Below are positions 389 through 61,842 of a stretch of 64,000 nt of DNA, piece after piece; positions within the stretch are counted from its first letter, which is position 1; the number at the start of each line of letters is the position of its first letter. The stretch spans positions 32,202-96,201 of the forward strand of contig JBEVNR010000012.1 of the NCBI GenBank assembly GCA_040507985.1, read 5' to 3'. The stretch is from Rickettsiales bacterium (lineage in GTDB: Bacteria > Pseudomonadota > Alphaproteobacteria > Rickettsiales > UBA6187). The position numbers and the translations under genes are program-made. The notes beneath the pieces were generated by a model. The model saw only the letters and a list, made by a program, of their open reading frames with translations. It did not search any database and had not been told where the DNA came from.

Positions 389-3030
389 CGATGAGCCATA
401 TCCCGTCATGGTCAATGCGACTGAAAAGAGCGTTATGCCTCTTGTCGCTGCTCGCGTGCGCGGCGTGCATTAACATGCCAAGTTATTGCCTGAAGCCCGG
501 CGACATCGGCAATTTCGAGATATATCAGTTTACCGTTCCCGCAAACGCGCCGTATTTCAACACGAACGTCGCCGTCGACGCCGGCGACGAGTTTAGCTTA
601 CACATTCAAGGCTCGATGAATCTTTGCCCGGGGGAGCTGGCGCTTTCGCCGAAAAATCCTTCCTTTCCGATTTCTCCCCAAAAAGAAACCTGGCAGGAAA
701 CGCCGTTTAAAGCCCGTAAGGACAATCCGTTCGCGCTCCGGGCGGCGGGTGCGTATTTCGATCGTTCGGGAAGGCGCGAATTAGGAAAAGGATTATACGT
801 CCTTATCATCGACGAAAAAGAGTTTGAGGCGCAAAAATCGCAACTGAACGATTTGGATTTCGACGCCGATCCCGAACCTAACAACGATCATAAAGCGTTT
901 GGGGGCAAGCAAAACTACGAAATGTTTTCGTTTGACAAGATAAGCGGAGGAAAAGAGGTCGTTAGCCTATCCATGCCCTTTGACGGACGGATATATTTTC
1001 GTTACGCACGCAGCGCCGACGCCAAAAAAGTCGTCAAAAGCGGGGGCGATTTACGACCGGAAAGTCCTTGGCGCGGCTATTACGCGTGGACGGACAGGTG
1101 CGATCCATGCGTTAAAATGGGTCCGCTGGCAGCCATTACGGAAGTATGCCGGGATTACGCGCCGGATTCTCCGAATTGCAGGGAACCGACGGGCGACCAC
1201 TGGGTGGACGACGACTACAAAAAAAATAGCGGCGGCTACGACGTCACGTTTTATTCCGGGTGTTACGTCGAAAACGGCGCGAATATCGACGTCGCCTTCG
1301 GCGGCCTTGGAGAAAGCGTTCCCAATACGCGATATAAGGGAACCAACGTACCATGCATTAGCCAGTCGAACGGACTGTGCGAAAATAGCGGCACGTTCTC
1401 TCCAAACGGTGCGCCGAGCGGCACGCCCTACGCGCCCGGAAAAGATTTTCTGGGCGTAAAGGTTAACCTTGCCGGCGCGATGGAAAAAATGGCTAAGGCC
1501 CCCGGTAAGGGCAACGTTATTTTTAAGCTCAACGACCAATACCAAAAACCGAGCGACTTGGTTAGTCCTTCCGGCGCATGCGCGGGCGCGGGTAAGGACG
1601 TGTCGCCGGCATGTTGCTTTCTGAACGCATGGCCGGAGGATTCTATAGGCGAAAAATTTAACGACGCCTCTTGTCCCTCTCCCATACAGAAATCCGGTGC
1701 GCAATTATGCGCGAAATACAGCAATTCCTGTATTCCGGCCGCCGGCTACACCGGTTATGCCGATAATGTCGGTTCCTATACCGTGGTGCTAAACGTACAG
1801 AGAAAACCTAAAATTAATCGCTTTTTGCGCGCGGTGAGCAGGCCGGTGGAACGATTGCTGTACGGCGCATGTTCGGGAAACGATTCCGCCAAAAGCGAAG
1901 CCGAATGCGGCAACACGGACTGGACCAAAGGCATTGCCGAACGCGTCTATACGGCGGCGGTCGAAAGCAAGGGTTATCGATTAATCGTCTATGCGCTCGC
2001 CACGCTCATGGTAACGCTATACGGTTATGCTCATATGCTGGGTTTGGTGAAGGACACGGCTAGAGAGACGATCGTTCGGGTTATTTATGTCGGGATCGTG
2101 TTTACCTTGCTTGCGCCGGAAAGTTGGCAAATATTGTATAAGTATTTGTTTAGCTTTTTTATCGAAGGCATAGACGGCTTTATGATCATCTTGCAATCGG
2201 ACATATTGTTTAGTTTTTTTGATGACGTTGACACCAGCGCCAACGAAATTCAAAATATCGCGGAACCGACGGCAAGCGGTTTCCCGGGTATTAGCATAGA
2301 AGATCCGTTTGATTTCTTCTACTATACGTTTTATTGGATATTTAACGGAATGACGATATTAAAAATGTTGTCGTTCCTTATGTACGAATTTCCCTTCGGC
2401 ATTTTTTATTTATTTTTGTTCCTCATCATCCTTATTTTGTATCTCGTGCTTATTTTACGTACGTTTTTTATGGTGTTGGTCGCAAAAGTGACGATGGCTA
2501 TTCTTATCTCGGTAGCGCCGATGTTCTTTATCATGCTCTTTTTTAATAAAATGCGTCCGCTTTTTTATAACTGGCTAAAAATATTGGCCAGCTTTATGAT
2601 GCAGGCCGTCGTGATGGTTACCGCCGTCGCGATGTTTAACATCTTGTTCTTTGTGTTCATGTATAAGCTTTTATCGATACCTTTATGCGTCGGGTGCGTT
2701 ATTAATTTAGAAATTTTTCCTTTCTGGCATTGGTTTGACTTTTGCCTATTTTATTTTTTTAAGCCGCATCCAAACTACGTGAAGCCTCTATTGTTTTTCG
2801 TTATCATATTAACGCTGCACGTCGGTCAACACGTCAGCTTGTCACTTACAAAGTGGACGGCCATCATGTTTGAGGCCGGCTCGGCCACGCTTAAGGAGGT
2901 GGCGGAAAAGATGAGCGCCGATGCCCAACGGGCGATAACCGCCCCGATACTTGGAGGCATGCGCATGGCAATGAAAGGCGCGTCCATGGCGTCTAAACTG
3001 GGCAAGGGGGGCGGAACAACGAACCGTTAG
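385..3030 (+). CDS. virB6: VirB6/TrbL family type IV secretion protein with long Cys-rich N-terminal extension (881 aa)
   Basis: N-terminal signal/lipobox-like segment. Polytopic core with LLAPESWQILYKYLF, ILISVAPMFFIMLFF and LFYNWLKILASFMMQ, typical of TrbL/VirB6. Confidence 0.9.
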   Translation: MTMSHIPSWSMRLKRALCLLSLLACAACINMPSYCLKPGDIGNFEIYQFTVPANAPYFNTNVAVDAGDEFSLHIQGSMNLCPGELALSPKNPSFPISPQKETWQETPFKARKDNPFALRAAGAYFDRSGRRELGKGLYVLIIDEKEFEAQKSQLNDLDFDADPEPNNDHKAFGGKQNYEMFSFDKISGGKEVVSLSMPFDGRIYFRYARSADAKKVVKSGGDLRPESPWRGYYAWTDRCDPCVKMGPLAAITEVCRDYAPDSPNCREPTGDHWVDDDYKKNSGGYDVTFYSGCYVENGANIDVAFGGLGESVPNTRYKGTNVPCISQSNGLCENSGTFSPNGAPSGTPYAPGKDFLGVKVNLAGAMEKMAKAPGKGNVIFKLNDQYQKPSDLVSPSGACAGAGKDVSPACCFLNAWPEDSIGEKFNDASCPSPIQKSGAQLCAKYSNSCIPAAGYTGYADNVGSYTVVLNVQRKPKINRFLRAVSRPVERLLYGACSGNDSAKSEAECGNTDWTKGIAERVYTAAVESKGYRLIVYALATLMVTLYGYAHMLGLVKDTARETIVRVIYVGIVFTLLAPESWQILYKYLFSFFIEGIDGFMIILQSDILFSFFDDVDTSANEIQNIAEPTASGFPGISIEDPFDFFYYTFYWIFNGMTILKMLSFLMYEFPFGIFYLFLFLIILILYLVLILRTFFMVLVAKVTMAILISVAPMFFIMLFFNKMRPLFYNWLKILASFMMQAVVMVTAVAMFNILFFVFMYKLLSIPLCVGCVINLEIFPFWHWFDFCLFYFFKPHPNYVKPLLFFVIILTLHVGQHVSLSLTKWTAIMFEAGSATLKEVAEKMSADAQRAITAPILGGMRMAMKGASMASKLGKGGGTTNR

Positions 3031-3033
3031 ACT

Positions 3034-5652
3034 ATGAGTGCCTTCTTTAAGAAATTTTTTCGGAACGGATTGTCCGCGTTGCTGCTTATGCTCCTTACCG
3101 CCTGCGGGGATTACGGATGCGTGGACGCGGACGATTGGGGGTATCCTAAAATTCCGTTGTTGATGGATTTTGAAGACATGCAAAAAGACGGCACGCTGGT
3201 GCTTTATCCGGGCAATGATTACATTCAATATATGCAACCGGTGGACAGCCATCAATTGCTGATGGGAACGCCGCTTATTATTAAGATGGATCGCGCGCAC
3301 AACCAATGGGCGCCGTTTCTCGGACCCTGGCTCAACCCGATGTTTGACGGCGACGGCGAAGAGCGCATGGTGGACGGGTGGTGGCCGGAAAAACTGATTC
3401 CTAATCGCGAATGCCGATATTTCGTCTATGATCCAAGTCTGAACTATAGTTACATAGATAAACAATTTTACGATCCGAACTTTCCTTCTAACCAACCCAC
3501 CATCGCGCTTCAAAAGCAACAACTCATTAAATGCGCCAGAAATAAGGAAAACGCTTCCGATTTTACCGACGCCGATTTTTACGGAGATTGCCTAGCTCCA
3601 TGCTTCGTTCGTCACGGCGTAGGGTTATATATGGCTATTTTCCCGGAGAAGAAAACACTGGACGATCTGGCGACGCTCACGCCCGAAGATTTGCATCTTA
3701 CGCATTTAACCGACTTTCCCCTGAACGGTCCGCTTAACGCGCCGGAAACCGGTCCCGACGCGCGCGCAATCGACGGATTTTTAGTCACCGGCAGCGTTCC
3801 CGGCACGAAAAGAAACGACCGCTTATATTTTAAGATTGAAGACACTTATTACCAGGACAATACCGGCGGCTATATCGTGCATTTAAAATGCGGCACGAAA
3901 CCCGACAAAAAAGGGCCGTTCCAATACGCCACCGACATGGTCAGAACGTTTTCGCTTTCCATGGCCGAAGCGATGTACAAGATTCTTACCTCTGCCGAAG
4001 GATTTATCAACATCGTGCGGGCGCTTCTCGTCCTTAGCGTCGTATTGTACGGCCTTAATTTTCTCATGGGAACGGTGCCGCTTTCTTTAGGCTCCACCAT
4101 CCGCATGTCCGATTTCATTCTATACGTTCTAAAATTGGGCGCGGTCATCACCCTTATTAGTCCGGAGAGCTGGGACTTTTTCTACAATCACTTTTTTAAG
4201 GTGTTTACTTCCGCCGTCGATTTTCTGGGAGGATTGTTTTTAGAGGGAGTCGACGATCTAGGGCTTGGGTGCAACTGGCTCGGGGAAGAATCTCCGTGGT
4301 ACGCGGCCGACGTCATGTTTCGGGTGTTAACCTCGGACGAAACATGGCGAAAGGTGGCGTCCACGTTATTTAGCAATGTATGGGGCTGGTTGTTTATCGT
4401 CACGTTCATTGCGGCGTTCGTCATATTTTTTATCGCCGCCGCCAAAATGCTGCTTATTTATTGCCTGGGGTTCATCTCCCTCGCCATATTGATCATATTG
4501 TTCCCCATATTTTTCGTGTTGTATTTATTTGGGTGGACGAAAGACTATTTCGCGAAGGAATGGGTGAGCCAAGTGGTGGCGAACGTCACCGAAATCGTCT
4601 TTTCGGTGGCGCTGCTCGGCTTTATTTTCCAATTAATTATGGTGATGCTGCAAGGAACGCTAGGGTATCGCGTGTGTTGGAAAACGTTTTTTGAGTTCCC
4701 TAAAACGCCGGTATTGGTGTCCTTGGAATTTTTTATGCCGGATATCGGTCCCGTCATTGAAATGACCGACACCGACGGAGACGGAGCGACCGATACCCAA
4801 CGCTATCGCGACATGCCGTATTTTGATCTGACGAAAGACGCCGACAAGATACAACGCTATTTGCGCGGGAATAATTTTATCGATCTATCGGGATTGGTCG
4901 GACTGCTGGCCGTGATGCTGATATTCCGTTACATGAGCGATTTGCTATCGAAAATCTCCGACGAACTCAAGGCCGGTGGCGACTCCTTCCGCCAAAGCGC
5001 CAGCCTTGCCTCCGGCGGGGCGTGGACGCCGAGCGCCGTTCTCAACGACGCGAGGCAAACGCTTCCCGTCAAGCGGCGCATGGCATTTGGATTCATACCG
5101 TGGATTGGGCTTCGTAAGGGCGGGGCATTCGTCGATACCATGGTGCGCGCCTCAACCGTCGGTAAGGCCGCCATTGGCGTCGCGATGGAGCAAGGTAAGG
5201 AAGCCGCGAAGGAAACGAACGCCTCGTTTAACGAAAGCTTCTTTAAGGAATTGGAGGGTCGCAAGACGAAATACGAAAAAGCCCTTGGCGACGCGATGAC
5301 CGCAGGTACGCCGGAAGAACAAAAAGAGGCCCGTAAATTGATGCTCGCCAATAATAAAGTTCTGTTGAAAAAAGGGTTAAAGGTGGCGGAAAATGTAAAC
5401 GCTCGACGTAGCGGCGATAAAAGCGCGATCCGCAACGTGACGGTTAACAGAGACGACCTTGTCTATCCGGGCATTAGCGACGCCGGGTACATTACCGCCG
5501 CCAATAGGTTTGCCGACGCGGTCAATACGCTTCAAGACAACGAAAGAAGGGGCGTAAAAGACTTAAGCGGCGACGTCAGGGAGCTAAATGACGCGGCGGA
5601 AAAATTCGAGGTGGCAAACGCGCTCTACGAAAAACGCATCGATAACGAATAG
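3034..5652 (+). CDS. virB6: VirB6/TrbL family type IV secretion protein (872 aa), lipobox LTAC
   Basis: LLTAC lipobox and CVDADDWG N-terminal motif. Core has LISPESWDFFYNHFF and LFPIFFVLYLFGWTKDYF, paralogous to the upstream gene. Confidence 0.9.
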   Translation: MSAFFKKFFRNGLSALLLMLLTACGDYGCVDADDWGYPKIPLLMDFEDMQKDGTLVLYPGNDYIQYMQPVDSHQLLMGTPLIIKMDRAHNQWAPFLGPWLNPMFDGDGEERMVDGWWPEKLIPNRECRYFVYDPSLNYSYIDKQFYDPNFPSNQPTIALQKQQLIKCARNKENASDFTDADFYGDCLAPCFVRHGVGLYMAIFPEKKTLDDLATLTPEDLHLTHLTDFPLNGPLNAPETGPDARAIDGFLVTGSVPGTKRNDRLYFKIEDTYYQDNTGGYIVHLKCGTKPDKKGPFQYATDMVRTFSLSMAEAMYKILTSAEGFINIVRALLVLSVVLYGLNFLMGTVPLSLGSTIRMSDFILYVLKLGAVITLISPESWDFFYNHFFKVFTSAVDFLGGLFLEGVDDLGLGCNWLGEESPWYAADVMFRVLTSDETWRKVASTLFSNVWGWLFIVTFIAAFVIFFIAAAKMLLIYCLGFISLAILIILFPIFFVLYLFGWTKDYFAKEWVSQVVANVTEIVFSVALLGFIFQLIMVMLQGTLGYRVCWKTFFEFPKTPVLVSLEFFMPDIGPVIEMTDTDGDGATDTQRYRDMPYFDLTKDADKIQRYLRGNNFIDLSGLVGLLAVMLIFRYMSDLLSKISDELKAGGDSFRQSASLASGGAWTPSAVLNDARQTLPVKRRMAFGFIPWIGLRKGGAFVDTMVRASTVGKAAIGVAMEQGKEAAKETNASFNESFFKELEGRKTKYEKALGDAMTAGTPEEQKEARKLMLANNKVLLKKGLKVAENVNARRSGDKSAIRNVTVNRDDLVYPGISDAGYITAANRFADAVNTLQDNERRGVKDLSGDVRELNDAAEKFEVANALYEKRIDNE

Positions 5653-7034: not shown

Positions 7035-9407
7035 CTAAAATCGCAGCAATTGCAGCAACTTGCCGATGCGCGAGTTGACTTGCGCCAGAATCGCGGAGGC
7101 GGCGTCGGCCTTGACGGTTGCTTCGGTAAACTCGGTGGACTCTTTGGAATAATCCGTGTCCAACAAGGACGAACGCGCGGCGTCCGCGTTTTGGATGGAC
7201 GATTCGTTGTTGGCGATGGCGGAGTCGAAGGACGACGTCGCCGCGTCTACGTCGGAGATCAGCGAAATCACCTTGTTGATCGCGTTGTTCAGCACGTCGC
7301 CGGCCTTTTTTGCGCCGTCCAGCGTGCCGATGTTGAGCGATTGGGTGACGCTGCCGCTGTCCTTGTACAAATCGCTCGTCGTGGCGCCGCCGATGGACAC
7401 GCCGATCGCGTCGCTGGACGCGCTGCCCACTTGGAACGATAGCGAGTTATTGGAGGCCACGCCGAACAAGTTGTTTAGCGTCGTGGCGAAATTGGACGCC
7501 GCCGTGTCGGTCGAAAGGTCGATCGAGGTGGTGTTCACGCCGTTCGCGCCGCCCGCTCCGGCCAATTCAAGGATAATTTGCTTGCCGTCGCCTTCGGTGG
7601 ACGAGTTCAGCACGATCTGCACCCGGTCCGCCGAGTTGATCGTAATGTTCTTGTTGCTCGTGCTAAAGCTCGATCCGTTAGCGCCCACGACGCTTAAACC
7701 CAAGTCGCTGTTCAGCGAGGCGGTGCCGGCCGAGGTGCTGTCGGACAAGTCCGCCGTGTACGTCACGCCGTTAACGGTCGTACTCAGTTTAAACGTGTCC
7801 TTGTCGTAGCTGAACGAACCGATGCTGCCGAAGGAGCCGTCGCTGCCGAAGTTGTCGCTACGGACGCGAAGCGCGCCCGTCACGCCGCCCGACGCGCTGG
7901 TGCTATAGCCGGTCAGCCCTTCCAGAACCGTGCCGACCGCCGCTTTCAGGGAATCGTCCGTCGCGCTGACATGGTCGGCGTTGATGGCGCGCTCTTGCAC
8001 GATGCTCGCTTTGGAAAGCTGCTCGCCCAGCGCCGTCGAGGTGCTGTTAAGCGCGTTTTGTATCGTCGTCAGCGAGGCGCCGCTGCCGCCGAGCGACACG
8101 TCGCTCGAACCGAACGTCAACTGGAAGCCGTTGTCGGTCAGGTTGCCGCTTGAATCCTTGGCGCCGTTCGCGTTAAAGAAAGTCAATGCTTGGCTTCCCC
8201 TAATCACGGTGTTCGTGCCGGTGTCCTGCAACCCGACGGAGTTCGACGTGTAGGTTTGGCCGTTGACTTCGGCGCTAAAGGTGACGCGTTTTTCCGCTCC
8301 CTCTTGCGTGACGGTCGCGCTGATGTTTTTGATTTGCCCTTCTAGTTTTGCGTCGAACGTGCTGTTGGAAGCGTTGCCCCGATTCGCGCCTTGCGTTACC
8401 CCGCTTTCGGCGGAAACCGCCGCAATGGTGCGGGAGCTGCCCGCGATGTCCGTCGGCGTGGTGTTGCCCACCGTCGCGGTGGCGCCGGCCTCGATGCCCG
8501 TCACTTGGAAGGAAATCGTGTTGGCGGCGTCGCCGGCGTCTTTCGCGGTGACGACAAGGCTGGAGCCGACGGCTTCGTAGGTGAATTTACGGGCGTTTGC
8601 GTCGGTGCTTTGGTTTAACGCGGTGGCGGCGGCGTTTACGAACGCCACGCCGTCCGCGGCGGCGTTGCCGGCGGCGCTATAGGTAAAGGCGATGGCCGAA
8701 CCGCCCGCCACCGTAATGCTGGCGGCCTGGGTGGCGCTGCCGGCGGCGGCGTTACCGACGACGTCGATGCTAAATTGCGCGCGCGTGGTGCCAATGTTTT
8801 CTGAGGCGACGGCGCCGAAGGCGCCGATGACGTTGCCGTCCGCCTGCGCTTCGGTACTGCTGGTGTCGGCGGCAAGCGAGCTGACCAGGTTGCCGGAGGA
8901 AACGGTGCCGGCCAACCGGAATTGGTTGGTGCTGGTGAGCGAGTAATTTTCGCTGGTTTCGGCGGTTTTCGTCGAGCCGCTCGCTTTACCGGAAATCGAA
9001 CCGTTAATCAGCGCCTTGCCGTTAAAGTTGGTGTTGTTGGCGATGCGGTCTATTTCTTTGGACAACGCCTGGAACTCCTGGTTCAAGAATCCGCGTTCGT
9101 TGTCGGAGAGGGAGTCGTCGGACGCTTTCGTCGCCAGGTTTTTTTGCGACGTTAAAAGGTCCGCGATGGTTTCTAATCCGCCTTTCGCCGTGCTTAAAAG
9201 GCTTTTCGCTTGTCCGGCGTTGAGAGTGGCCGTCTTAAGGACCTCCACTTTGGTGCTAAGCACCGTACCGACGGAGAAATCCGCCACGTTGGCGTTCTGG
9301 CGCTTGCCGGTAACGAGGTTGGATACGGATTCGGACACGGCCGAAGAGGCGCGGTTAATGTTTGCCTGCGCTATCTTCGAGTCCGAGCTACTAATGGAAA
9401 CTGGCAT
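7035..9407 (-). CDS. fliC: Flagellin, large (790 aa)
   Basis: N-terminal EFQALSKEIDRIANNTNFNGKALING; C-terminal LSFQVGS and ARSSLLDTDYSKESTEF...LLQLLR. Ala/Ser/Thr/Gly-rich variable middle. GGAG SD. Confidence 0.93.
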   Translation of the reverse strand: MPVSISSSDSKIAQANINRASSAVSESVSNLVTGKRQNANVADFSVGTVLSTKVEVLKTATLNAGQAKSLLSTAKGGLETIADLLTSQKNLATKASDDSLSDNERGFLNQEFQALSKEIDRIANNTNFNGKALINGSISGKASGSTKTAETSENYSLTSTNQFRLAGTVSSGNLVSSLAADTSSTEAQADGNVIGAFGAVASENIGTTRAQFSIDVVGNAAAGSATQAASITVAGGSAIAFTYSAAGNAAADGVAFVNAAATALNQSTDANARKFTYEAVGSSLVVTAKDAGDAANTISFQVTGIEAGATATVGNTTPTDIAGSSRTIAAVSAESGVTQGANRGNASNSTFDAKLEGQIKNISATVTQEGAEKRVTFSAEVNGQTYTSNSVGLQDTGTNTVIRGSQALTFFNANGAKDSSGNLTDNGFQLTFGSSDVSLGGSGASLTTIQNALNSTSTALGEQLSKASIVQERAINADHVSATDDSLKAAVGTVLEGLTGYSTSASGGVTGALRVRSDNFGSDGSFGSIGSFSYDKDTFKLSTTVNGVTYTADLSDSTSAGTASLNSDLGLSVVGANGSSFSTSNKNITINSADRVQIVLNSSTEGDGKQIILELAGAGGANGVNTTSIDLSTDTAASNFATTLNNLFGVASNNSLSFQVGSASSDAIGVSIGGATTSDLYKDSGSVTQSLNIGTLDGAKKAGDVLNNAINKVISLISDVDAATSSFDSAIANNESSIQNADAARSSLLDTDYSKESTEFTEATVKADAASAILAQVNSRIGKLLQLLRF

Positions 9408-52245: not shown

Positions 52246-53694
52246 TTATGCATGAGGTCCATTTTTAAGCGCACGCAACGTCTCTTCCACGTCGGAAAAA
52301 TGGCTGCGCGTTCCCATAACTTCCTGATAGTCCTCGTGTCCCTTGCCGGCGATAAGCACGGCGTCGCCCGGTTTGGCGCACTTTACCGCCTGCGCGATGG
52401 CGGCGCGGCGGTCGCCGATTTCGCGCGTTTTGGACGGATCGCATCCCGCGAGCACCTCAGCCCGAATCGCTTCCGGAGCTTCGCTGCGCGGATTGTCGTC
52501 GGTCACGATAATCGCATCAGCCAATCTCGACGCAATCTGGCCCATTATCGGACGTTTTCCGGCGTCGCGATCGCCGCCGCACCCGAAAACCACGACGACG
52601 CTTCCTTGCGTCGCGCGACGCAGTCCGGCAAGGGCGTTTTCAAGCGCGTCCGGCGTATGGGCGTAATCGACGTAAAACGCGGCGCCGTCCTGCACGGCCA
52701 CGCATTGCATGCGCCCCGGTACGTCCGGTACGCTCGCCAAGGCGGCGACGGCCTCTTCCATCGAGCCGTCTTTCACATATGTAAACGCGCATAGCGCATA
52801 CAGGGCGTTTCTGCATTGAAATTCGCCCCGCAGCCGCATGCGCGCGCCATATTCCTTGCCTTTATACGCAAAGCGCATTTCTTGCGTCGCTCCTTCCGTG
52901 CGCATGGAGATAAGTCGGCAATCGGCGCCTGACGCTTCGCCGACGGAAATAATCGGCGCGTTTTTTTCCTTCGCAACGCGTTGAAGGCGGGAGAAATAGG
53001 GGGAATCCGCGTTCGCGATCATAGGGGCGCCGGGTTCGAGCAGATCGAACAACAGGCATTTAGCGGCGAAATATGCATCGAAATTTTTATGATAGTCCAG
53101 ATGGTCTTGCGTTAAGTTGGTGAACATGCCGAGGGCGAAGCGGCAACCGGCGACGCGCCGCTGCTGCAACCCATGGCTTGAGGCTTCGATGACGGCACGA
53201 ACGGCGCCCTCCTCGCCGGCTCTTTTAAAAGCCTTATGCAGACTCGCGGCGTCCGGCGTGGTGAGGGGCACGTCAACGCGGGCCTCGCCGCCATCGTTTA
53301 TCACGCCGAGCGTGCCGACGCTCACGGCTTTTTTCCCGGTTCTTTCCCACAATTCCCGCAAAATCCACGTCACGGAGGTTTTGCCGTTGGTGCCGGTGAC
53401 GGCCACTTTTTTCTCGATGGCGTCGGCATAGAAAAAAGCGCAGGAACGGGCGAACGCGCCGGCCAAATCGTCGCATCGGTAGTAAGCGACGCCGGGAGCG
53501 CGCTTTTCCTCCGGCAGCTTTTCGAACGAAATGACGGCTTTTACGCCCTTGGACAATCCGTCCGCGACATAGCGCGGATCGAACGCGAACAAGGCGTCGC
53601 CTTTTTGCGCCAGCCGAGAATCCCGCGCGACGCCGGCAAGCAATATGGGCGATGCGCCGGCGTATAGCTCTCCGAAATAATCGCCCCATTCCAT
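52246..53694 (-). CDS. murE: UDP-N-acetylmuramoyl-tripeptide synthetase (DAP-adding)
   Basis: VTGTNGKTS, LTTPD, EASSHGL, TNLTQDHLDYH, DYAHTPD, DNPR, AGKGHE. Confidence 0.96.
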   Translation of the reverse strand: MEWGDYFGELYAGASPILLAGVARDSRLAQKGDALFAFDPRYVADGLSKGVKAVISFEKLPEEKRAPGVAYYRCDDLAGAFARSCAFFYADAIEKKVAVTGTNGKTSVTWILRELWERTGKKAVSVGTLGVINDGGEARVDVPLTTPDAASLHKAFKRAGEEGAVRAVIEASSHGLQQRRVAGCRFALGMFTNLTQDHLDYHKNFDAYFAAKCLLFDLLEPGAPMIANADSPYFSRLQRVAKEKNAPIISVGEASGADCRLISMRTEGATQEMRFAYKGKEYGARMRLRGEFQCRNALYALCAFTYVKDGSMEEAVAALASVPDVPGRMQCVAVQDGAAFYVDYAHTPDALENALAGLRRATQGSVVVVFGCGGDRDAGKRPIMGQIASRLADAIIVTDDNPRSEAPEAIRAEVLAGCDPSKTREIGDRRAAIAQAVKCAKPGDAVLIAGKGHEDYQEVMGTRSHFSDVEETLRALKNGPHA

Positions 53695-53699
53695 ACGGA

Positions 53700-53981
53700 T
53701 TATCCCTTGAAATGCTCAAAAATCGTCCATCCTCCGATAAGCACGAAACCGATTCCGGCGAACAGCTTCAGCGGAATCGCCTCAAGATATTTCGCCGCAA
53801 ACGCTCCCAGCAAGACGGCCACGGCGGTAGAGGCGATCAGCGCCGCCGACGCGGCGGCAAACACGACCCACGGATTGTTTTTACCCTCCGACGCGAAAAG
53901 CACGGTGGCAAGTTGCGTCTTATCGCCAAGCTCCGCGAAAAAAATCGTTAAAAAAATGGCAAAAACGGCGGGGACATGCAT
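53700..53981 (-). CDS. TMEM165/GDT1 (UPF0016) family protein, single-repeat form
   Basis: AELGDKTQLA motif, three hydrophobic helices, 93 aa. Confidence 0.9.
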   Translation of the reverse strand: MHVPAVFAIFLTIFFAELGDKTQLATVLFASEGKNNPWVVFAAASAALIASTAVAVLLGAFAAKYLEAIPLKLFAGIGFVLIGGWTIFEHFKG

Positions 53982-54075
53982 GAAAAAGATAATTTTTTGT
54001 TATATTCTTCAGCAACTATATGCTAAAACCAACTAAGGAAGCAAGCCTATATCCGTTTAAAGCCTGTTTTGCATC

Positions 54076-55635
54076 ATGAGGCGTCGCGCCATGAACGACA
54101 CGACCATATTGCTCACCGTTCGGCAAGAGCGCTCCGGAGACGTGCCGGGCGTGCTTGACCTTAACCGCCGCGTCTACGGGCCTGAGGGCTTAAGCGAGGA
54201 AATGTTCATCGGCCAGCTGGCGAACTTCCCCGAAGGCCAATTCGTGGCCGAATATAACGGAAAGATCGTCGGCTATTGCGCCACGTTCGTCACGAGCGGG
54301 GGCGTCGCCCTCAAGCCCCATAATTGGGAGCGCATTACCGGCCATGGCTTCGCCTCGCGGCACGATCGGGAGGGGGATTACCTCTACGGCATGGAAATTT
54401 GCGTCGATCCGGAATATCGCCGCCTGCGCATCGGCCAACGCCTCTACGACGTGCGGAAACGCTTGTGCGAGGAAATGCGCCTGAAAGGCATCGTCTTCGG
54501 CGGACGCATGCCGAACCTCTCGAAACGCATCAAGCGTTTCGGCACGCCGGAAAATTACTTAGAAGCCGTGAAAGAGCGCAAGATCAACGATCCGGTGGTG
54601 AATTTTCAGCTACGCAACGGTTTCGAGATCATCGGATTGCTGAAAAATTACGATCCGAACGACAAGGAGTCGCTCGGCTACGCCACGCATATGGTGTGGC
54701 ATAACCCGGTGGTGGAGCCGGACGAGCGCAAGAAAAAATTGTGGGACAGGCGCAAGCACCCGCCGGTGCGCATTGCGTCGGTGCAATACCAGGCGCGGAA
54801 GGTCGATTCTTTTTCCGACTTTACCAAACAGGTGGAATATTTCGTCGACGTGGCGGCGGAATACCGATCGGATTTCGTCGTGTTTCCCGAAATGTTCACC
54901 CTGCCGTTGCTCTCCATCCAAAACAAGCCGCTCTCGCCGGAAGAGTCCATCGCCAAAATCACGGAATATACCGACGATTACGTAAGCTTCATGCAAAATT
55001 TGGCGGTGTCGTACAACATTAACGTCGTCGGCGGCTCGCATCCCACCAAAAACGACAAAGGTGACCTGGAAAACGTCGCCTACGTGTTTTTGCGCGACGG
55101 CGCCGTCCATACCCAGCCGAAATTGCACCCAACGCCGCACGAGCGCTATTGGTGGAACATTAAGGGCGGCAACGTGCTCAAAGCCATCGCCACCGATTGC
55201 GGATCGATCGGTGTGATGACGTGCTACGATTCGGAATTTCCCGAAACGGCGCGCCATCTGGCCGACCAAGGGGCCAAAATTCTCTTCGTGCCGTTCTGCA
55301 CCGACGAGCGGCAAGGCCATTTGCGGGTGCGCTATTGTTGTCAGGCGCGGGCGGTGGAAAACCAGATATACGTCGTCACCTCCGGCATCGTCGGGAATTT
55401 GCCGGACGTCGAAAACATGAACGTCCATTACGCCCAAAGCGGCATTTACACGCCGTGCGACTTCCCCTTCGCGCGCGACGGCGTGGCGGCGCTCGCCGAC
55501 TCGAACACCGAGACGATCATCTTCGCCGATCTGGACCTGGAGCAGCTCACCGTCAGCCGAAACTCCGGCACGGTGCAGAATTGGCAGGACCGTCGGTTCG
55601 ATTTATATAAAGTGGCGTGGAAGAAGCGGCAGTGA
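54076..55635 (+). CDS. GNAT acetyltransferase / carbon-nitrogen hydrolase fusion
   Basis: N-terminal FPEGQFV and VDPEYRRLRIGQRLY; C-terminal triad VFPE, KLHPTP, CYDSEFPE. Alternative start 54091. Confidence 0.92.
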   Translation: MRRRAMNDTTILLTVRQERSGDVPGVLDLNRRVYGPEGLSEEMFIGQLANFPEGQFVAEYNGKIVGYCATFVTSGGVALKPHNWERITGHGFASRHDREGDYLYGMEICVDPEYRRLRIGQRLYDVRKRLCEEMRLKGIVFGGRMPNLSKRIKRFGTPENYLEAVKERKINDPVVNFQLRNGFEIIGLLKNYDPNDKESLGYATHMVWHNPVVEPDERKKKLWDRRKHPPVRIASVQYQARKVDSFSDFTKQVEYFVDVAAEYRSDFVVFPEMFTLPLLSIQNKPLSPEESIAKITEYTDDYVSFMQNLAVSYNINVVGGSHPTKNDKGDLENVAYVFLRDGAVHTQPKLHPTPHERYWWNIKGGNVLKAIATDCGSIGVMTCYDSEFPETARHLADQGAKILFVPFCTDERQGHLRVRYCCQARAVENQIYVVTSGIVGNLPDVENMNVHYAQSGIYTPCDFPFARDGVAALADSNTETIIFADLDLEQLTVSRNSGTVQNWQDRRFDLYKVAWKKRQ

Positions 55636-55913
55636 CAATCTATTTTTCTCTAAGAACCGCTCTTATCGTCGTCGCCTGCGCCAACCTGCTGGCGTTCGCC
55701 TTATGCGCGCTGGACAAAAGCGCGGCGCGGCGCGGCGCGCCGCGCATTCCGGAGGCAATGTTCTTTACCCTCGCGCTCGCCGGCGGATGGCCTCTGCTGC
55801 TTGTCGCCATGCGCATGTTTCGGCATAAAACGGCGAAAACGTCGTTTAAGATGCGCGTCTATCTGGCGGTGATCTGCGACCTTATATTAGCGGCGTACGT
55901 GATTTTTTTATAA
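55632..55913 (+). CDS. DUF1294 family membrane protein
   Basis: DKSAARRG, RIPE, GGWP, FRHKTAK. GTGA overlap with the upstream stop. Confidence 0.88.
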   Translation: MTIYFSLRTALIVVACANLLAFALCALDKSAARRGAPRIPEAMFFTLALAGGWPLLLVAMRMFRHKTAKTSFKMRVYLAVICDLILAAYVIFL

Positions 55914-56012
55914 TTTTATTTTTAAAACGACGAGAAATAACTGCCATGATAACGCCGATAAAAGAAATATAAAAAATTTCTCGACGCCCGCGCCGAGGCA
56001 ACAGAAAAGCGC

Positions 56013-57251
56013 TTAATTCGATGTGAAAAAATATGGATTGACGCGAATTTTTACGTCAAGAGACGAGCGCGTTAGACGGACGGCACATGATATGTCCGAT
56101 CCATTATGAGCCGAAATAACGGAGATATCGTCAAAAAATCGAGCTTGATATCGTTCTTTCGGGGTCAATATGTGGGGAGATGTAAGCGCGTTCACCGTCG
56201 TGACGAGATCGCGGTATAATTCGGAATTGAGATTATCGCACAACGATTGTATCTGCGTTGCCATTTCTTCCAAACATTTTTTCGTATCTGCGTCAAGCGC
56301 TTCCCATATCATGACCTTCTTAAGCGAAGAAAAGATTTCCGACAATATCCGTTCGGGATGACAGGTCATTCTCACCTGCACCGTATCTTCTTGGATCTGC
56401 GTTTCCGTCTTGCGCAATTGTTCCGCAAAAGGAATGGAACCGCCAGTCTGAATCGCGTGGGCGAAAATAAGGGCATAAAGAACGTTCAGAGCGGGAAGGA
56501 AGCGCGTATCGTGATAACCAAATTGTTTCGCGCACAGCATATGGCAGCGCCGCACGGCGGCGTATACGGTTCCGAGCGACCTCTCTTCGACCGTCCACCC
56601 GTCATACTCGAATACGATAAGCAAAAACTCCGTACACGCAATGACGAGATCGCTCGCGTCGCGTTGCCGAACAGGAGAATCTGCGATTTTTTTCAACGCA
56701 GCTTGCAATCCGTTGCACGGTTTTTGCATATATGCCGTTTCGTTGCCGGAAATGTTTAACAGGCTTATTTCACCAACGATATTTGCCATCCGCTCGCGTA
56801 GCTCGGGGTATTCACTTTTAAAAACAACGTGAGGGGCGATAGACTCGAAGCCGCGCCAAAGAATCCATTCGGGTTCGTTTTCTTGATCGCCCCGGGTGTT
56901 GCTTGCCGCCAATTGCTCTTCGACTTCCACAATTTTAGCTGCAAAATCGGCGCTTGCGTCGGCAAACAATTTGCGCAAGAAAATGTCATTAAAGTATTTC
57001 GTTAATATGGTAGTGAATTCGCTTTCTGTATTGGCGCTTTTGCCAAAACGCGTTTCGCATAAGGCATGGAAATGTTTAGCCGCAGCGTATAATGCGATAA
57101 GCAACCCGTCGGTGAAAATAACGGTATCTTTTGATTTTTCCAATGCGAATACGTCTAGAAAAAAGTCCAGGCATTTCGAAATCAAGAGATCAAGTCTTTC
57201 TTTTTGATCTTTCGGCGGATGGGCGTCGAAGGAAGACAAGGCATCCACCAT
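56013..57251 (-). CDS. Orphan helical protein with an internal two-fold duplication (412 aa)
   Basis: Long ATG-started ORF whose two halves align by eye (see findings). Confidence 0.75.
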   Translation of the reverse strand: MVDALSSFDAHPPKDQKERLDLLISKCLDFFLDVFALEKSKDTVIFTDGLLIALYAAAKHFHALCETRFGKSANTESEFTTILTKYFNDIFLRKLFADASADFAAKIVEVEEQLAASNTRGDQENEPEWILWRGFESIAPHVVFKSEYPELRERMANIVGEISLLNISGNETAYMQKPCNGLQAALKKIADSPVRQRDASDLVIACTEFLLIVFEYDGWTVEERSLGTVYAAVRRCHMLCAKQFGYHDTRFLPALNVLYALIFAHAIQTGGSIPFAEQLRKTETQIQEDTVQVRMTCHPERILSEIFSSLKKVMIWEALDADTKKCLEEMATQIQSLCDNLNSELYRDLVTTVNALTSPHILTPKERYQARFFDDISVISAHNGSDISCAVRLTRSSLDVKIRVNPYFFTSN

Positions 57252-57607
57252 GGCGACGAATTACGATCGGAGCAATCAAGGATATGCAAAAACGATATAC
57301 GCAACGAGCGAGCGGAAGGCTGAGCTCAAAATTGTATGATTGGCAATTAATAATGGTTGCTAGCCGTTTTGTCAAGAGGCGCGATGCGCGGGACCGGAGA
57401 CTTCTTTTTTAAAAAAAATAGATGCGTTGCGTCGTCCGTCGTTACGTTTTGTTATAGGATTAGGCGGAAAATAAAAAGAGGAAATGCGTTAAACTATCCA
57501 AAAAATAGAAGATTGATATTATATTTCATTATTATTTAATATCAATTCTTTATGTTCTTTTGATGCGTCGGCAAGAAGTAAGGAAGAATAAGGGGAAGAG
57601 GCGGCAT

Positions 57608-57937
57608 ATGGCAAAATGTTTGATTATCGCGGCGGACGAATATATCCGCGACTCGGTGGCCGACATGACGGAAGGGTGCGGTTTTGAATGCCGCACCGCC
57701 GAAAATTCCATTCACGGGCTTATCGCCTGTTCCGAACGCATGCCCGACGTCATTATTATCAACTGTATGTTGCCGGACATGAACGGCATTGAGTTTTTCG
57801 AGATATTGCGCGGCATGCCGGGAGGAAGGCGCCCATTCGTGATTTTATGTTCCGACATTCAAATGCGTTCCGGAAAGGGTGCGGCAAAATATTTAGAGTC
57901 GCTTCGCGACAGCGTCGTTCGGGCGGCGTTCGCCTAG
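57608..57937 (+). CDS. Single-domain pseudo-receiver (CheY-like) protein
   Basis: CLIIAADE, PDVIIINCMLPDMNGIEF receiver-fold motifs; phospho-acceptor Asp replaced by Asn. Confidence 0.75.
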   Translation: MAKCLIIAADEYIRDSVADMTEGCGFECRTAENSIHGLIACSERMPDVIIINCMLPDMNGIEFFEILRGMPGGRRPFVILCSDIQMRSGKGAAKYLESLRDSVVRAAFA

Positions 57938-58219
57938 GTTAACGCGCAAAGTTCATTTTTATAAAAAATATTTTTTTTTGCGCAAGGTAAGTGTCTGTGG
58001 AACGTCGCCTTAGACCGGCTAGGGCGCGCTTCCGAAGAAACGTCAAAAAAGCGACGAGGCGCTTTCATGGGGAAGAATGGAAGCGTAATTAAATAATTAC
58101 GCGGTGCGCCATAGCGATACATAACTAACTATACGTGACCGAAATGACTGTATGAGGAAATTTCGAGATGTGCTTGGCGACGAAGAGCGGACGTTTGGAG
58201 GTGCGGCGGGGGTTTAGTT

Positions 58220-59440
58220 TTAGAAGAAGTATCCTTCGAGATGTTGTTGATTAGAGGGAACGGACTGCTGATTAGGAATCCAGCCACAATCCGTTCCGTT
58301 GAATATCTGCACAACAACTTCATCCTCCCCTAGTGGTTGGTGAATATCGCTATAATTAGCGGGCATGGTAGCAGATCTTTGCTTAGGCCGATACACATCA
58401 GGCGACAACATCTGACTACCACGCGTTGCCATTGATATTCCGGTAGGGGATGCAACCGGCGGGGGGAAAGCCGGTTGTTGATTTTCTCCCTTCATAACGA
58501 GTTTGGTATCGGTATAGGATCGCACAAGGGGTGGGTGCGGCCGCACATTTTGATATGTATCCCCGTTCTTCGGAGGCACAGCAGGCCGCATATCTGCTTG
58601 AAGTTTACCACCAACGCGATTCGAATCATGCATATTGGAATCGAAAGCGGTCGATGGTAACATAGAATGTAGCTTGAACGATGAAGGAGAACGTATCGCC
58701 TCGGGAGAAGGCAGGGAAGTCAAACTATTGTACGACGCTTCCCCAATCAAGTTTGATTGAGACTGCGATTGGCTATCCAAAGCAATACGTATTGTCCTGT
58801 CACGGTGAAGATGTTTATCAAGCCAATCTCCTATCTTATCGCACCAACTATCTTTTTCGGGTTGATGGGATAGACGATGCTTCTTCATATCCTTCAGTTC
58901 CGTCACTTTAGGTAATGAGCTGCATTTACGAATTGCCTGAAGGCGGCTGCGCAGACGCAGGTTGCGACGAGAACTCGTAAAAAACATCAGCGACCACAAT
59001 GCGATTCCTGCAAATATACACCCGAAGCAAGTTACCGGCGACCACTCGGGCAATAGAGTAAGACCGATAAACAAACCTGAGGTCACGTTTCCGACGTTCG
59101 CCATCGCGGCCGTGTCGCCGGAGACATATTCCTCATGCCACGTTGCTACCCGAGAGGGTGACAACTGATCGCGTTGCAAGATATGTGTAACATAAAAACT
59201 GCGCGCATTGTCGTACCAGTAGATCGATTGGGTAAGGATAAAACCCAGGATCAATATGACGCAGTAAAAGATCATCGTGCGTTTAGCATTTCCTTCGGTA
59301 TGCGCCATGATTATGAAGACAAGAACAAAGATAAACGCCCACCACAAAACGCTAAACAATGCGTGGGAAATGCGCTTTACTTTTTCGCTCGTCGATTCAT
59401 ATCCAGAAAAGGCGCTGAGATATTTTCTTTGTGCTTTCAT
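58220..59440 (-). CDS. Orphan membrane protein: four hydrophobic segments and a long Ser/Pro-rich tail
   Basis: Long ORF in atypical-composition DNA. ATG at 59440; frame open to TTG 59575. Confidence 0.7.
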   Translation of the reverse strand: MKAQRKYLSAFSGYESTSEKVKRISHALFSVLWWAFIFVLVFIIMAHTEGNAKRTMIFYCVILILGFILTQSIYWYDNARSFYVTHILQRDQLSPSRVATWHEEYVSGDTAAMANVGNVTSGLFIGLTLLPEWSPVTCFGCIFAGIALWSLMFFTSSRRNLRLRSRLQAIRKCSSLPKVTELKDMKKHRLSHQPEKDSWCDKIGDWLDKHLHRDRTIRIALDSQSQSQSNLIGEASYNSLTSLPSPEAIRSPSSFKLHSMLPSTAFDSNMHDSNRVGGKLQADMRPAVPPKNGDTYQNVRPHPPLVRSYTDTKLVMKGENQQPAFPPPVASPTGISMATRGSQMLSPDVYRPKQRSATMPANYSDIHQPLGEDEVVVQIFNGTDCGWIPNQQSVPSNQQHLEGYFF

Positions 59441-59679
59441 CGCGTAAGCGAACTCTTGGCGACGGTTGAAGAATGTGCGTGAGTATGGACCGGGTAAGCG
59501 AACAGGCGGTTCAAGGCGAGGAACCGAAAATTTAAGTGGTATTCTTAGTGTATAGGATAAGGTAACAAGAGGCAATTTCTTAATAATATATGTCGCATTT
59601 TTTTAATAATTCATCTTCCGCGGCAGGGCAATGTCATAAATTAACGAGCTAACAATTTGCGCTAAAAATATGAATTTTC

Positions 59680-59842
59680 GTCATTCCCGCGCAGGCGGGA
59701 AAACAAGCGTAGCGCAGTTTCGCCAATCCGGTGTCCTAAAAAACTTGCGTGGGCAGCACACTCAATCTTCGTTAAAGGATTTTGAAATGTGCTTTGCGCA
59801 TAAGTTTATTTTTAAAATCCGGATTGGCGCCTGCGCGAGAAT
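59680..59842. repeat. REP/RPE-like long palindromic element
   Basis: GTCATTCCCGCGCAGGCG...GCCAATCCGG left arm, CCGGATTGGCGCCTGCGCGAGAAT right arm, inner AGCACA/TGTGCT pairing. Confidence 0.75.
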
Positions 59843-60242
59843 AGAAGAATGCATTCAATCATTTTCAGTCGGATTCGCTATACATCTTATTTTTAGCATC
59901 AGGCGGAAACAATGGCGCCGTATCGCCGCGCAAAATTTTCCTGAAAAACAAAAAATAATATAATTTCACTTAATAATAACAACTATAAGTTAAAAAACTT
60001 TAACTTTAAATTGAATATACAAAATGAATTTTAACTTTCTTAAAAAAATTACGGGAAATGTCATTTTTTTATTGATTAACGGAAAATTTAGAAGTATTAA
60101 TTAAATCACCAAACACACTCTCGCGAACGACTGAACAGCTAAACACTCTCAGAAACACCGAGTACAGAAAAGCCAGTCTTTCTTGCTTCATTGTTTTTAG
60201 CCTAAACGCTCCCTATCTCCGTATCTTTGAACCGGTTTCAAG

Positions 60243-61442
60243 ATGCATTTCAGTCAAGCATTTCTTCAAGTTGCCATTCCTTTCCTTCTTCTTGGATCCG
60301 TCGGTGCAGTTCCTGCTCGTGGAAACGGAAACAATGGAAATGGTAACGGGAACAATCGTTCAACTACTTCTTCCGTTCATCCTAGCTCGACTCCGTTGAC
60401 TAGCTCTTCGATTCGTCCTAGCTCCACCCGTCCTGCTTCCAGCTCGACTCCGTTGACTAGCTCGATTCGTCCTAGCTCGACTAGCCTTAGTTCATCGCTG
60501 ATCTCCTCTTCTACTGTTCCTGTACCCACGGGTAAACCTTGGTCTTCCGTATGCAATGGCGTCAAGAATGGTCCTGGCGAGTGTCCTTACACTCCTCTCG
60601 ACACTAAATGGGATCCCACTGACTACGTAATTGTTCAAGATGCTCTCTGGGATCTTTGCAAGCCAAACGGTAAGGCGGAAGATGCTTGGAACAAGCTACA
60701 GAGGCAAGCTACCATCGAACACGATGCACGAGTGAATGTCAATCTAACAATGGAACAATCATCTCGGGATAACGTCACTCTTACAAGAGAGCTAATCCTT
60801 GATGCTGATGAAGATGCTTCCCTTGCTCAACTTGATCGGAACATCACAGCAAAAGAGAATCGTCTAAACGTTCTCGTTGCACTGGTTCCTAAGTGTTATG
60901 CAGACATTCTAATCAGCAACGAATGGAAGAGGCAAAACGAAACTTGTCACCGCGCCTCTATGCTTAATAGCCGAGTCGATGGTTATGTGGAAAGGGCTGA
61001 AGACTCCAACACTAACGCTCAAAAGAGACGGGTATTGCTTGAACGTGCTCATAACGTAAACAAGACGATTTATATGCCCGCTTTGCAAACTTGCCAAAAA
61101 TGGCAGGACAAAGTTGCTGATAAGACAAATGCATGCAACGCCATCAGAAACGAGCGTGACGAATTGGTCCGAGAGATTCCTAAGGAAAAAGCTCTTAGCC
61201 AAGAGCTTCACACACAAGATGCCGTACGTAACGGAAATCTTGTTGAGCTTGGATACAAGGCAGGTAACTCTACTAAAGCGTATCAGGATGCAATTCGCAA
61301 AGCTGACCAAGAAGGTGAAACCTTACGTGATCGCCAATCTAAGTACAATGCCAAGCTTCAAGTTATCAATGATTACTTGTATTGCCCTGCTCAAGCCGTT
61401 ATGCGTTACCTACGTCGCTCAATTCCAGTTATGTTTTTGTAA
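60243..61442 (+). CDS. Secreted Ser/Thr-rich, disulfide-containing coiled-coil protein with eukaryote-like features (399 aa)
   Basis: Signal peptide, Gly/Asn repeat, mucin-like region, 8 Cys, 7 N-x-S/T sequons, many T-ending codons. Confidence 0.85.
   Translation: MHFSQAFLQVAIPFLLLGSVGAVPARGNGNNGNGNGNNRSTTSSVHPSSTPLTSSSIRPSSTRPASSSTPLTSSIRPSSTSLSSSLISSSTVPVPTGKPWSSVCNGVKNGPGECPYTPLDTKWDPTDYVIVQDALWDLCKPNGKAEDAWNKLQRQATIEHDARVNVNLTMEQSSRDNVTLTRELILDADEDASLAQLDRNITAKENRLNVLVALVPKCYADILISNEWKRQNETCHRASMLNSRVDGYVERAEDSNTNAQKRRVLLERAHNVNKTIYMPALQTCQKWQDKVADKTNACNAIRNERDELVREIPKEKALSQELHTQDAVRNGNLVELGYKAGNSTKAYQDAIRKADQEGETLRDRQSKYNAKLQVINDYLYCPAQAVMRYLRRSIPVMFL
60381..60484 (+). repeat. Intragenic duplication encoding SSTPLTSS(S)IRPSST twice
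   Basis: AGCTCGACTCCGTTGACTAGCTC occurs at 60384 and 60441, each followed by GATTCGTCCTAGCTC (after an extra TTC in the first copy). Confidence 0.9.
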
Positions 61443-61842
61443 CCGGCCGGTTCAGTTCACTTTCCTTCACCTTGTAAAACAAGTTCTTGGGTTCAGGCAA
61501 CAAAACGGTCTAGGTTAAGGCGTTTTCTTTCTTAGGTATGTTTTCCTTATTTCCTTCATCTTTTTCTTTTACCGGGACTCTAAGCTAAGAGTCAAAGCCA
61601 TTACTAAGCTGGCTTAGTAGACAAAATCCCCATCATAAACTGGAACTAAGTTGTGGTGCGAGGGATGACCGTTATGGAACATAACGGTTGTTTCTTCACC
61701 ACGCTAAATGACGTAAGAACTCACAAAACCCTTATGTCGCTTGCGGGCGCGTTCTTCTCGAATGTTCGAGCGGAGCGCGCCCGTTTTTTTTGCCCTGACG
61801 CCACGCGAAAAACGCGCCTTATGCTTTGCCGCCAAAGGCGTT

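Follow-up and report, generated by a model that had tools for sequence, protein, structure and literature searches.

The orphan gene and its product

The DNA analysed here, hereafter the window, is a stretch of 64,000 nucleotides that corresponds to C4:32202-96201 of a 2.07-Mb assembly in 58 contigs, a single metagenome-assembled genome (MAG) that is 91.7% complete. We are concerned with one open reading frame (ORF) in it, at 60243-61442 on the + strand, which a first-pass annotation made from the letters alone had read as the gene of a eukaryote-style secreted glycoprotein, either captured from a eukaryote or its virus or encoding a bacterial product adapted to pass through the host endoplasmic reticulum (ER). 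The gene is intact, correctly assembled and an orphan, its codon usage is native, and on balance we regard it as a genuine native gene of a bacterium that is Rickettsiales-like, probably intracellular and equipped with a type IV secretion system (T4SS). This gene (the target) and the parts of its product are as follows.

60243-61442, + strand: orphan gene for a predicted exported protein of 399 aa (ORF listing and translation)
60243-60308, + strand: signal-peptide-like N-terminus, aa 1-22, with an n-region MHFSQ that lacks Lys and Arg, a hydrophobic core and the junction VGA-VP (read from the translation)
60321-60356, + strand: Gly/Asn repeat GNGNNGNGNGNN, aa 27-38 (read from the translation)
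60360-60530, + strand: Ser/Thr/Pro-rich stretch with internal repeats, about aa 40-96, about 57 residues (translation)
60675-61439, + strand: long-helix, Cys-containing C-terminal domain, aa 145-399, with six N-x-T sites (single-sequence AlphaFold2)

The frame runs for 399 codons from its ATG, which is the first start after a stop in an open frame of 403 codons, and the gene occurs as a single copy in the genome. What the first-pass annotation had observed was confirmed as a whole: the translation begins with MHFSQAFLQVAIPFLLLGSVGA, followed by VP, in which the hydrophobic core is preceded by no Lys or Arg, and the Gly/Asn repeat and the Ser/Thr/Pro stalk are both present. By eye the N-terminus resembles a signal peptide, with features compatible with bacterial and eukaryotic types alike; a crude scan of N-termini returned 63 of 322 without Lys or Arg, a count too noisy to serve as a rate since Rossmann folds and membrane proteins are mixed in. 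The Ser/Thr/Pro stretch contains an exact 23-nt direct repeat (60384-60406 and 60441-60463, spacing 57 nt) and a 20-nt unit in three copies; Tandem Repeats Finder reported no array in the target.

The C-terminal domain is predicted to consist of helices at residues 145-223, 226-254, 259-339, 344-357 and 361-393. The model has a mean predicted local distance difference test score (pLDDT) of 55.5, its confident part being limited to about aa 190-335, and a Foldseek search with it against PDB returned generic coiled-coil matches, none at E<=0.001. The protein has 8 Cys. Its C-terminus, ...RYLRRSIPVMFL, is basic (RYLRRS) and shows no omega site, spacer or hydrophobic end of the kind that directs a glycosylphosphatidylinositol (GPI) anchor.

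In the public gene call this ORF begins only at Met170, which leaves aa 170-399 (P0001, 230 aa); the signal peptide, the Gly/Asn repeat and the stalk, encoded at 60243-60749, are therefore missing from protein databases. The full frame, the signal peptide and a third-position bias that is uniform along the gene argue for the long form.

Codon usage and translation signals

Target codons end in T in 158 cases, C in 94, A in 82 and G in 65 of 399. The T-ending usage that had been pointed out is thus real: T at third positions (T3) amounts to 0.40 and GC content at third positions (GC3) to 0.40, against 0.16 (standard deviation 0.055) and 0.68 (standard deviation 0.086) in the 821 ORFs of at least 300 aa. 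The gene has 45% GC and the same third-position bias in both halves. As eukaryotic marks, in contrast, the T-ending codons and the missing Shine-Dalgarno (SD) sequence failed, both being native traits of this genome. The codons are not a foreign mark because the genome's own translation genes use them: the relative synonymous codon usage of the target correlates at 0.56 with that of ribosomal-protein genes and at -0.21 with the bulk, and in a likelihood ratio of translation-gene versus bulk usage it ranks 2 of 1244 ORFs, so that its codons are among the closest to those of the bacterium's own translation genes (Pfam confirmed 17 of the 18 reference genes). It differs from the ribosomal-protein genes in preferring AAG (Lys), AAC (Asn) and TAC (Tyr) and in avoiding TTA.

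A GC3 below 0.52 was found in 191 of the 1590 ORFs of at least 120 aa, including ribosomal-protein and translation genes on three contigs; one such translation-gene cluster lies 3 kb past the end of the window. The translation loci concerned are these.

C50:49048-54302, C4:96424-98867, C11:83971-86728 and C30:1846-3036: ribosomal-protein, SecY, Adk, RpoA and NusG genes, GC3 0.19-0.51

GC is 0.39 over 798 kb in one family relative (G005) and 0.30-0.43 at the orthologous locus in 11 family relatives. This genome is a GC-rich outlier, in which the translation genes and the orphans retain the AT-rich composition of the family. Among the 191 low-GC3 ORFs are many large orphans, marked by an abundance of Pro, Gln or Ser, of coiled coil or of Cys-x-x-Cys repeats, and the low-GC3 orphans look like an effector repertoire.

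A loosely defined SD sequence precedes 293 of 725 high-GC3 ORFs and 15 of 79 low-GC3 ORFs, with a background of 19%; most genes of this genome lack one, and its lack in front of the target does not point to a eukaryotic donor. The region upstream is organized as follows.

59624-59850, strand not assigned: repeat dispersed in this genome, length about 160-230 bp, inverted ends at 59683-59697 and 59828-59842 (blastn and inverted-repeat scan)
59964-60242, + strand: upstream region, AT-rich at 59964-60099 (82% A+T), then a G-poor leader without SD at 60100-60242

In the 143-nt leader before the ATG there is no SD-like tetramer, G makes up 14% and pyrimidines 55%. The description of a pyrimidine-rich leader without SD accordingly stands for the SD and only weakly for the pyrimidines, the leader being G-poor rather than pyrimidine-rich. 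Sites found by a sigma-70 consensus scan were no more numerous than in shuffled sequence; a promoter candidate seen by eye, TTGATT-17-TATTAA, lies at about 60072-60100, and k-mer enrichment upstream of low-GC3 ORFs yielded AT-rich words alone.

Soundness of the assembly

Among sequencing runs, only one (X1, a soil metagenome, DNA) contains the stretch; the assembly was probably made from this run. Logan's independent assembly of X1 holds a 7346-bp contig (depth 14.9) that extends from 53000 to 59825, spanning MurE and a nitrilase-like gene through two neighbouring orphans, and a 2348-bp contig (depth 16.6) that begins within the target, at 60434, and reaches the acyl-CoA dehydrogenase gene downstream (62781); short unitigs fill the repeats between the two, including the Ser/Thr/Pro stretch. 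The dispersed repeat at 59624-59850 accounts for the break between unitigs and for the loose ends near 59670-59825. By blastn it is matched in part 19 times on 13 other contigs of this genome; it lies about 400 bp upstream of the target and ends in the inverted sequences ATTCCCGCGCAGGCG and CGCCTGCGCGAGAAT. It matches no Rfam family and looks like a miniature inverted-repeat transposable element or a repetitive extragenic palindromic element.

An assembly chimera, named in the first-pass annotation as something that would overturn it, is very unlikely at this locus, because both flanks are bridged at equal depth in an independent assembly and a genome-specific repeat lies upstream. That the locus is an artefact of any kind, a chimera or a non-genic open frame, we hold to be highly improbable. 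The truncated public gene call would fit such an artefact, as would the negative promoter scan and SD search, the lack of any RNA run with the stretch and a low language-model "recognition" score (1477); against it stand the bridged junctions, the native repeat and a 399-codon frame at 45% GC that opens with a canonical signal peptide and keeps one third-position bias throughout.

Homology searches and the possibility of capture

A phmmer search with the target against 1.84 billion representative proteins found only the target itself, as did a word-indexed search of 5.8 billion proteins; these large protein libraries were queried with the target and its two neighbours only. Scans of genome, metagenome and viral contigs revealed no homolog, and nothing was found in PDB sequences, Pfam, NCBIfam or the ESM Atlas, nor any paralogue among the genome's own ORFs. 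In 40 relatives there was one other match, of 17.9 bits with 2 stop codons inside, which we read as noise. The negatives on homologs hold for the searched libraries, whatever their coverage of eukaryotes. Broad bacterial homologs devoid of sequons, which would have undermined the first-pass annotation, did not appear either, no bacterial homolog having been found.

Capture from a eukaryotic host or a eukaryotic virus, with the donor's signal peptide, sequons and codons retained, is left without homology support because only the target itself was found: no library searched gave a eukaryotic, viral or bacterial homolog. We find no positive evidence for it and consider it improbable. Its appeal lies in the signal peptide without Lys or Arg, the mucin-like stretch, the N-x-T sites and the missing SD, in a 6-kb low-GC segment shared with two other orphans (below) and in the AAG, AAC and TAC preference and TTA avoidance that set the gene apart from ribosomal-protein genes. 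Against these count, besides the empty searches of 1.84 billion representatives and of viral contigs, codons that are closest to the bacterium's translation genes and fit the AT-rich family, the native repeat directly upstream, and the lack of any poly(A) remnant, flanking repeats or mobile-element marks. Moreover, the other sequon-rich orphans, described below, resemble the bulk in GC3 and occur singly between housekeeping genes.

Sequons and a set of anchored orphan proteins

The seven sequons that had been claimed were all found, at N38 (NRS) and at N167, N177, N200, N232, N273 and N342 (each N-x-T), giving six N-x-T and one N-x-S; likewise, as counted earlier, 6 of the 25 Asn in aa 100-399 are in N-x-T and none in N-x-S. 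The enrichment test proposed for these counts gave binomial p=0.0017 and shuffle p=0.0009 for aa 100-399, a region picked after the data had been seen, and a marginal result for the whole protein (p=0.016, rank 15 among 1237 ORFs of at least 200 aa). A p<=0.002 was reached by five of these 1237 ORFs, where about 2.5 are expected.

Over the whole genome, N-x-T excess is linked to anchored exported orphans. Of 1586 ORFs, the six that rank highest for N-x-T excess each encode a protein that opens with a signal-peptide-like segment and closes with a hydrophobic C-terminal anchor; the anchor heuristic flagged four of the six, and the tails of the other two were seen by eye in their C-termini. Seven members of the set are listed here, to which the target would add an eighth.

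C19:32203-32952, + strand: GPI-signal-like end
C4:107884-108969, + strand: GPI-signal-like end
C37:52387-53373, - strand: Ser/Thr stalk and GPI-signal-like end
C1:16182-17279, - strand: Ser/Thr stalk and GPI-signal-like end
C48:25217-26425, - strand: Ser/Thr stalk and GPI-signal-like end
C48:24108-24767, - strand: type-I-like, tail CCLRCCCGRKRR
C19:23664-24503, - strand: type-I-like, YARV

Each of the seven has 4-7 N-x-T and 0-2 N-x-S. Five C-termini show, by eye, a small-residue triplet, a spacer of 8-10 residues and a hydrophobic end of 13-14 residues without basic residues. The members are mutually unrelated and have no Pfam family; their GC by codon position is normal for coding sequence, their GC3 (0.57-0.65) is bulk-like, and they lie singly or as a pair among housekeeping genes. 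Two members were tested against 100 other genomes of the order each without a match, and one that was scanned against metagenome contigs gave none. A search of PDB sequences with two members yielded one match only, to a "putative lipoprotein" at E=0.072, and the structure model of the protein at C19:32203 reached a pLDDT of 38.

When ORFs were chosen by topology only (a signal-peptide-like start, no inner membrane segment and a C-terminal anchor), N-x-T numbered 23 in the resulting class of 12, where 6.5 are expected (Poisson p=4e-7; none of 5000 shuffles got as high), while N-x-S stood at 6 against 7.7 expected, and the odds of N-x-T over N-x-S were 5.2 times those in the rest of the genome (p=8e-5). 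The eight hand-picked proteins, the target included, hold 44 N-x-T and 6 N-x-S, a tally that is circular. The bias of the set suggests selection for Asn-linked glycosylation or its mimicry. We infer that the target belongs with these proteins, given the signal peptide, the Ser/Thr stretch and the ratio of N-x-T to N-x-S (6:1) that it shares with them, and it would then be functionally part of a group of at least eight unrelated, orphan, exported proteins biased to N-x-T. In the most likely scheme the bacterium would synthesize the target protein, whose N-terminal signal peptide would direct it to export by Sec; the flexible Gly/Asn and Ser/Thr/Pro stretch would hold out the long-helix domain, possibly stabilised by disulfides among the 8 Cys, and this domain may act at the interface with a eukaryotic host.

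Several observations weigh against placing a native target gene in such a set. Its membership is deduced: it has no C-terminal anchor of the kind that the other members have, its GC3 of 0.40 is unlike theirs, and its own sequon excess, taken alone, is marginal. Sec signal peptides without Lys or Arg are unusual in bacteria, and the consensus scan upstream of the target found no sigma-70-like site on the + strand. As for the class itself, the topology rules were hand-made and written after examples had been seen, 3 of the 12 ORFs supply 17 of its 23 N-x-T, and as a class the 260 ORFs that have a signal peptide but no anchor are not enriched (220 N-x-T against 214 expected). Finally, the set was not seen in the family relative G005 (798 kb, 664 ORFs), where 3 anchored signal-peptide ORFs have 0 N-x-T against 2.7 expected and the best N-x-T p is 6e-3; conservation therefore offers no check on the set, which, if real, is specific to this lineage.

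Candidate glycosylation machinery

A search for a bacterial oligosaccharyltransferase, which the first-pass annotation had called for, was run and found none in this genome or in 150 others of the order. Profile searches of the genome (91.7% complete) recovered neither STT3 nor the STT3-PglB core, and STT3 exceeded the cut-off in 0 of the 151 order genomes, this one included, with one sub-threshold match. No GT41 was found in the genome, although control genomes did give matches, which leaves no candidate for an N-glycosyltransferase (NGT) of the HMW1C-like kind; Wzy_C was likewise missing from the genome. The genome does encode a single GT-C enzyme, a PMT_2 family member whose gene adjoins that of a small membrane protein, a context that suggests lipid A modification.

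The Campylobacter-type extended sequon is D/E-X-N-X-S/T, and substrates of known bacterial N-glycosylation are periplasm-facing proteins. Glycosylation of the set by the bacterium itself, in the periplasm, would call for an enzyme that is neither STT3/PglB nor GT41, or for a gene in the unassembled 8%. A signal peptide combined with a C-terminal anchor does imply a periplasm-facing topology, the PMT_2 enzyme is a GT-C protein, and Ehrlichia ruminantium is reported to have N-glycoproteins, of which PNGase F-based mass spectrometry accounted for five (PMC6429767). The missing STT3 and GT41 speak against it, as do the single target sequon of seven with Asp or Glu at -2 (N200, context D-R-N-I-T), the placement of the PMT_2 gene, which resembles that of lipid-A-modifying enzymes, and hydrophobic ends that, with 13-14 residues, are on the short side for a membrane helix in bacteria. 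We assign this route a small probability.

Somewhat less improbable, though still unlikely, is that the proteins, once delivered by the bacterium, are clients of the host secretory pathway, whose ER oligosaccharyltransferase would glycosylate the N-x-T sites and whose machinery would fix the anchored members by GPI or type-I anchoring; equally unlikely is the wider proposal that at least eight orphan effectors are thereby displayed on host or symbiont-containing membranes. Consistent with host processing are the N-x-T excess in anchored orphans, the five GPI-signal-like C-termini (three of them after a Ser/Thr stalk), the type-I tails CCLRCCCGRKRR and YARV, the lack of STT3, GT41 and Wzy_C in the searches above and the presence of a T4SS. 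Toxins tagged with sequons are N-glycosylated on arrival in the ER, and the entry of yeast GPI proteins into this compartment is post-translational. To our knowledge, however, there is no route by which a bacterial protein reaches the ER lumen as a substrate of signal peptidase, oligosaccharyltransferase or GPI transamidase, and a literature search found no report of such a case. Other points against host processing are that the target itself has no anchor, that the topology assignments are hand-made heuristics and that an enzyme gene could be unassembled in a single MAG of this completeness.

The interpretation offered by the first-pass annotation is thus partly supported. Its eukaryotic capture gained no support, while adaptation to a host secretory pathway is upheld in spirit: a bacterial product adapted to the host ER is a live but unproven idea, to which the T4SS, the anchored N-x-T set and the searches without STT3 contribute. 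We continue to favour a native orphan gene of a T4SS-bearing bacterium.

The bacterium and the neighbourhood of the gene

Genes of evidently bacterial kind in the window include those for flagellin, PPK1, SecDF, TamA, GspF, PyrG and MurE. Other features in the window are listed below.

385-5652, + strand: third and fourth of four tandem VirB6/TrbL paralogues, both large, 881 and 872 aa (Pfam TrbL)
55800-61800, strand not assigned: low-GC segment of about 6 kb, GC 0.34-0.53 against about 0.55-0.61 in the flanks, with three orphans and a receiver domain inside
56013-57251, - strand: neighbouring orphan ORF, 412 aa, GC3 0.51
57560-57937, + strand: stand-alone response-regulator receiver domain, 125 aa, Pfam Response_reg E=2e-8, GC3 0.64
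58220-59575, - strand: neighbouring orphan ORF, 451 aa, with membrane segments and a Ser/Pro-rich tail, GC3 0.47

Four TrbL-matching ORFs lie at C4:27393-36842, behind a VirB4 at C4:21677, and a second VirB4 is on C6; the interval C4:21677-37850 thus holds VirB4 and, behind it, four VirB6-like ORFs in tandem whose open frames measure 821-1527 codons. TrbL matches occur in 61 of 61 sampled genomes of the order, at least three in 57 of them. A duplicated virB4 and a multiplied VirB6 characterize the "rvh" T4SS of Rickettsiales (PMC2653234), and the genome carries a system of this type. It also encodes two ankyrin-repeat ORFs. This pattern points to a Rickettsiales-like bacterium living with a eukaryotic host, in which "Rickettsiales-like" rests on the T4SS, and the bacterium is probably intracellular. 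Relatives of its CTP synthase belong to mixed phyla and reach no more than 52-63% identity. A search for the ATP/ADP translocase (TLC) gave no match and was uninformative, the control genomes being silent too. Host lipidation motifs sought in 1586 ORFs amounted to 2 CaaX-like ends, one of them that of ribosomal protein S8, and 12 MGxxxS-like starts, with nothing notable among them.

The flagellin at 7035-9407 (- strand) is unusually long, 790 aa, with NCBIfam flagellin matches at both ends, 16 sequons (7 N-x-T and 9 N-x-S) and a GC3 of 0.80; flagellar genes in a Rickettsiales-like genome are noteworthy.

Each of the two orphans next to the target (56013-57251 and 58220-59575) lacks a Pfam or NCBIfam family, has no match in 200 other genomes of the order and found only itself in the search of 5.8 billion proteins. 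The receiver at 57560-57937 has, by eye, an Asn at the expected position of the phospho-accepting Asp (DVIIINCMLPDMNG) and may be a pseudo-receiver. At the flanks of the low-GC segment there are no direct repeats, and no mobile-element marks were detected. The acyl-CoA dehydrogenase gene downstream of the target is kept in 12 of 12 family genomes at 57-62% identity, and no other gene of the window accompanies it in the 7 relatives examined; with no shared synteny in these, the edges of the low-GC island are not definable by comparison.

Comparison with known systems

Orphan effectors are common in intracellular bacteria, and a literature search found no description of the combination seen here, that of signal peptides, a five-fold N-x-T excess and GPI-like ends in a lineage in which no N-glycosylation enzyme of known type was found. 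If the host glycosylates and anchors these proteins, they would represent a new way for a symbiont to put proteins on host membranes; if the bacterium glycosylates them, a new kind of N-glycosylation enzyme in Rickettsiales would be implied; and if neither does, the result is an ordinary one, a further secreted protein specific to its lineage.

The GPI proteins of fungi and protists that are glycosylated and bear Ser/Thr stalks have the signal peptide, the N-x-T sites and the stalk in common with the target, and the GPI-signal-like ends in common with other members of the set. Unlike them, the set lies on a bacterial chromosome and its members have bacterial GC by codon position, while the stalk of the target is N-terminal and followed by no GPI-like end, and no homology to such proteins was found. 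N-glycoproteins of the Campylobacter (PglB) and HMW1C/NGT systems are likewise exported or surface proteins with N-x-S/T sites; here the differences are the lack of a detectable STT3/PglB or GT41 in the genome and the rarity of an acidic residue at -2.

Ehrlichia offers a parallel in the "mucin-like" gp36/gp47 and TRP32/47/120, secreted proteins with Ser/Thr-rich repeats that were once taken for glycoproteins and that are reported to be acidic type 1 secretion substrates and not to be glycosylated (PMC3533933, PMC2832021, PMC3417381). The target, with its signal peptide, its non-acidic stalk and its Cys-containing helical domain, does not qualify as one of these TRPs. Nor is there any sequence similarity to them, the target having no homolog in the searches above.

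The orphan and eukaryote-like secreted effectors of Rickettsia, Orientia and Legionella are a further close comparison. Like them, the target is lineage-specific and without a family, and it lies in a variable, low-GC region of a genome with a T4SS and ankyrin-repeat proteins. The effectors of intracellular bacteria that we know of are clients of the host cytosol and not of the ER lumen; unlike orphan effectors, the target has a cleavable-looking Sec signal peptide and sequons biased to N-x-T.

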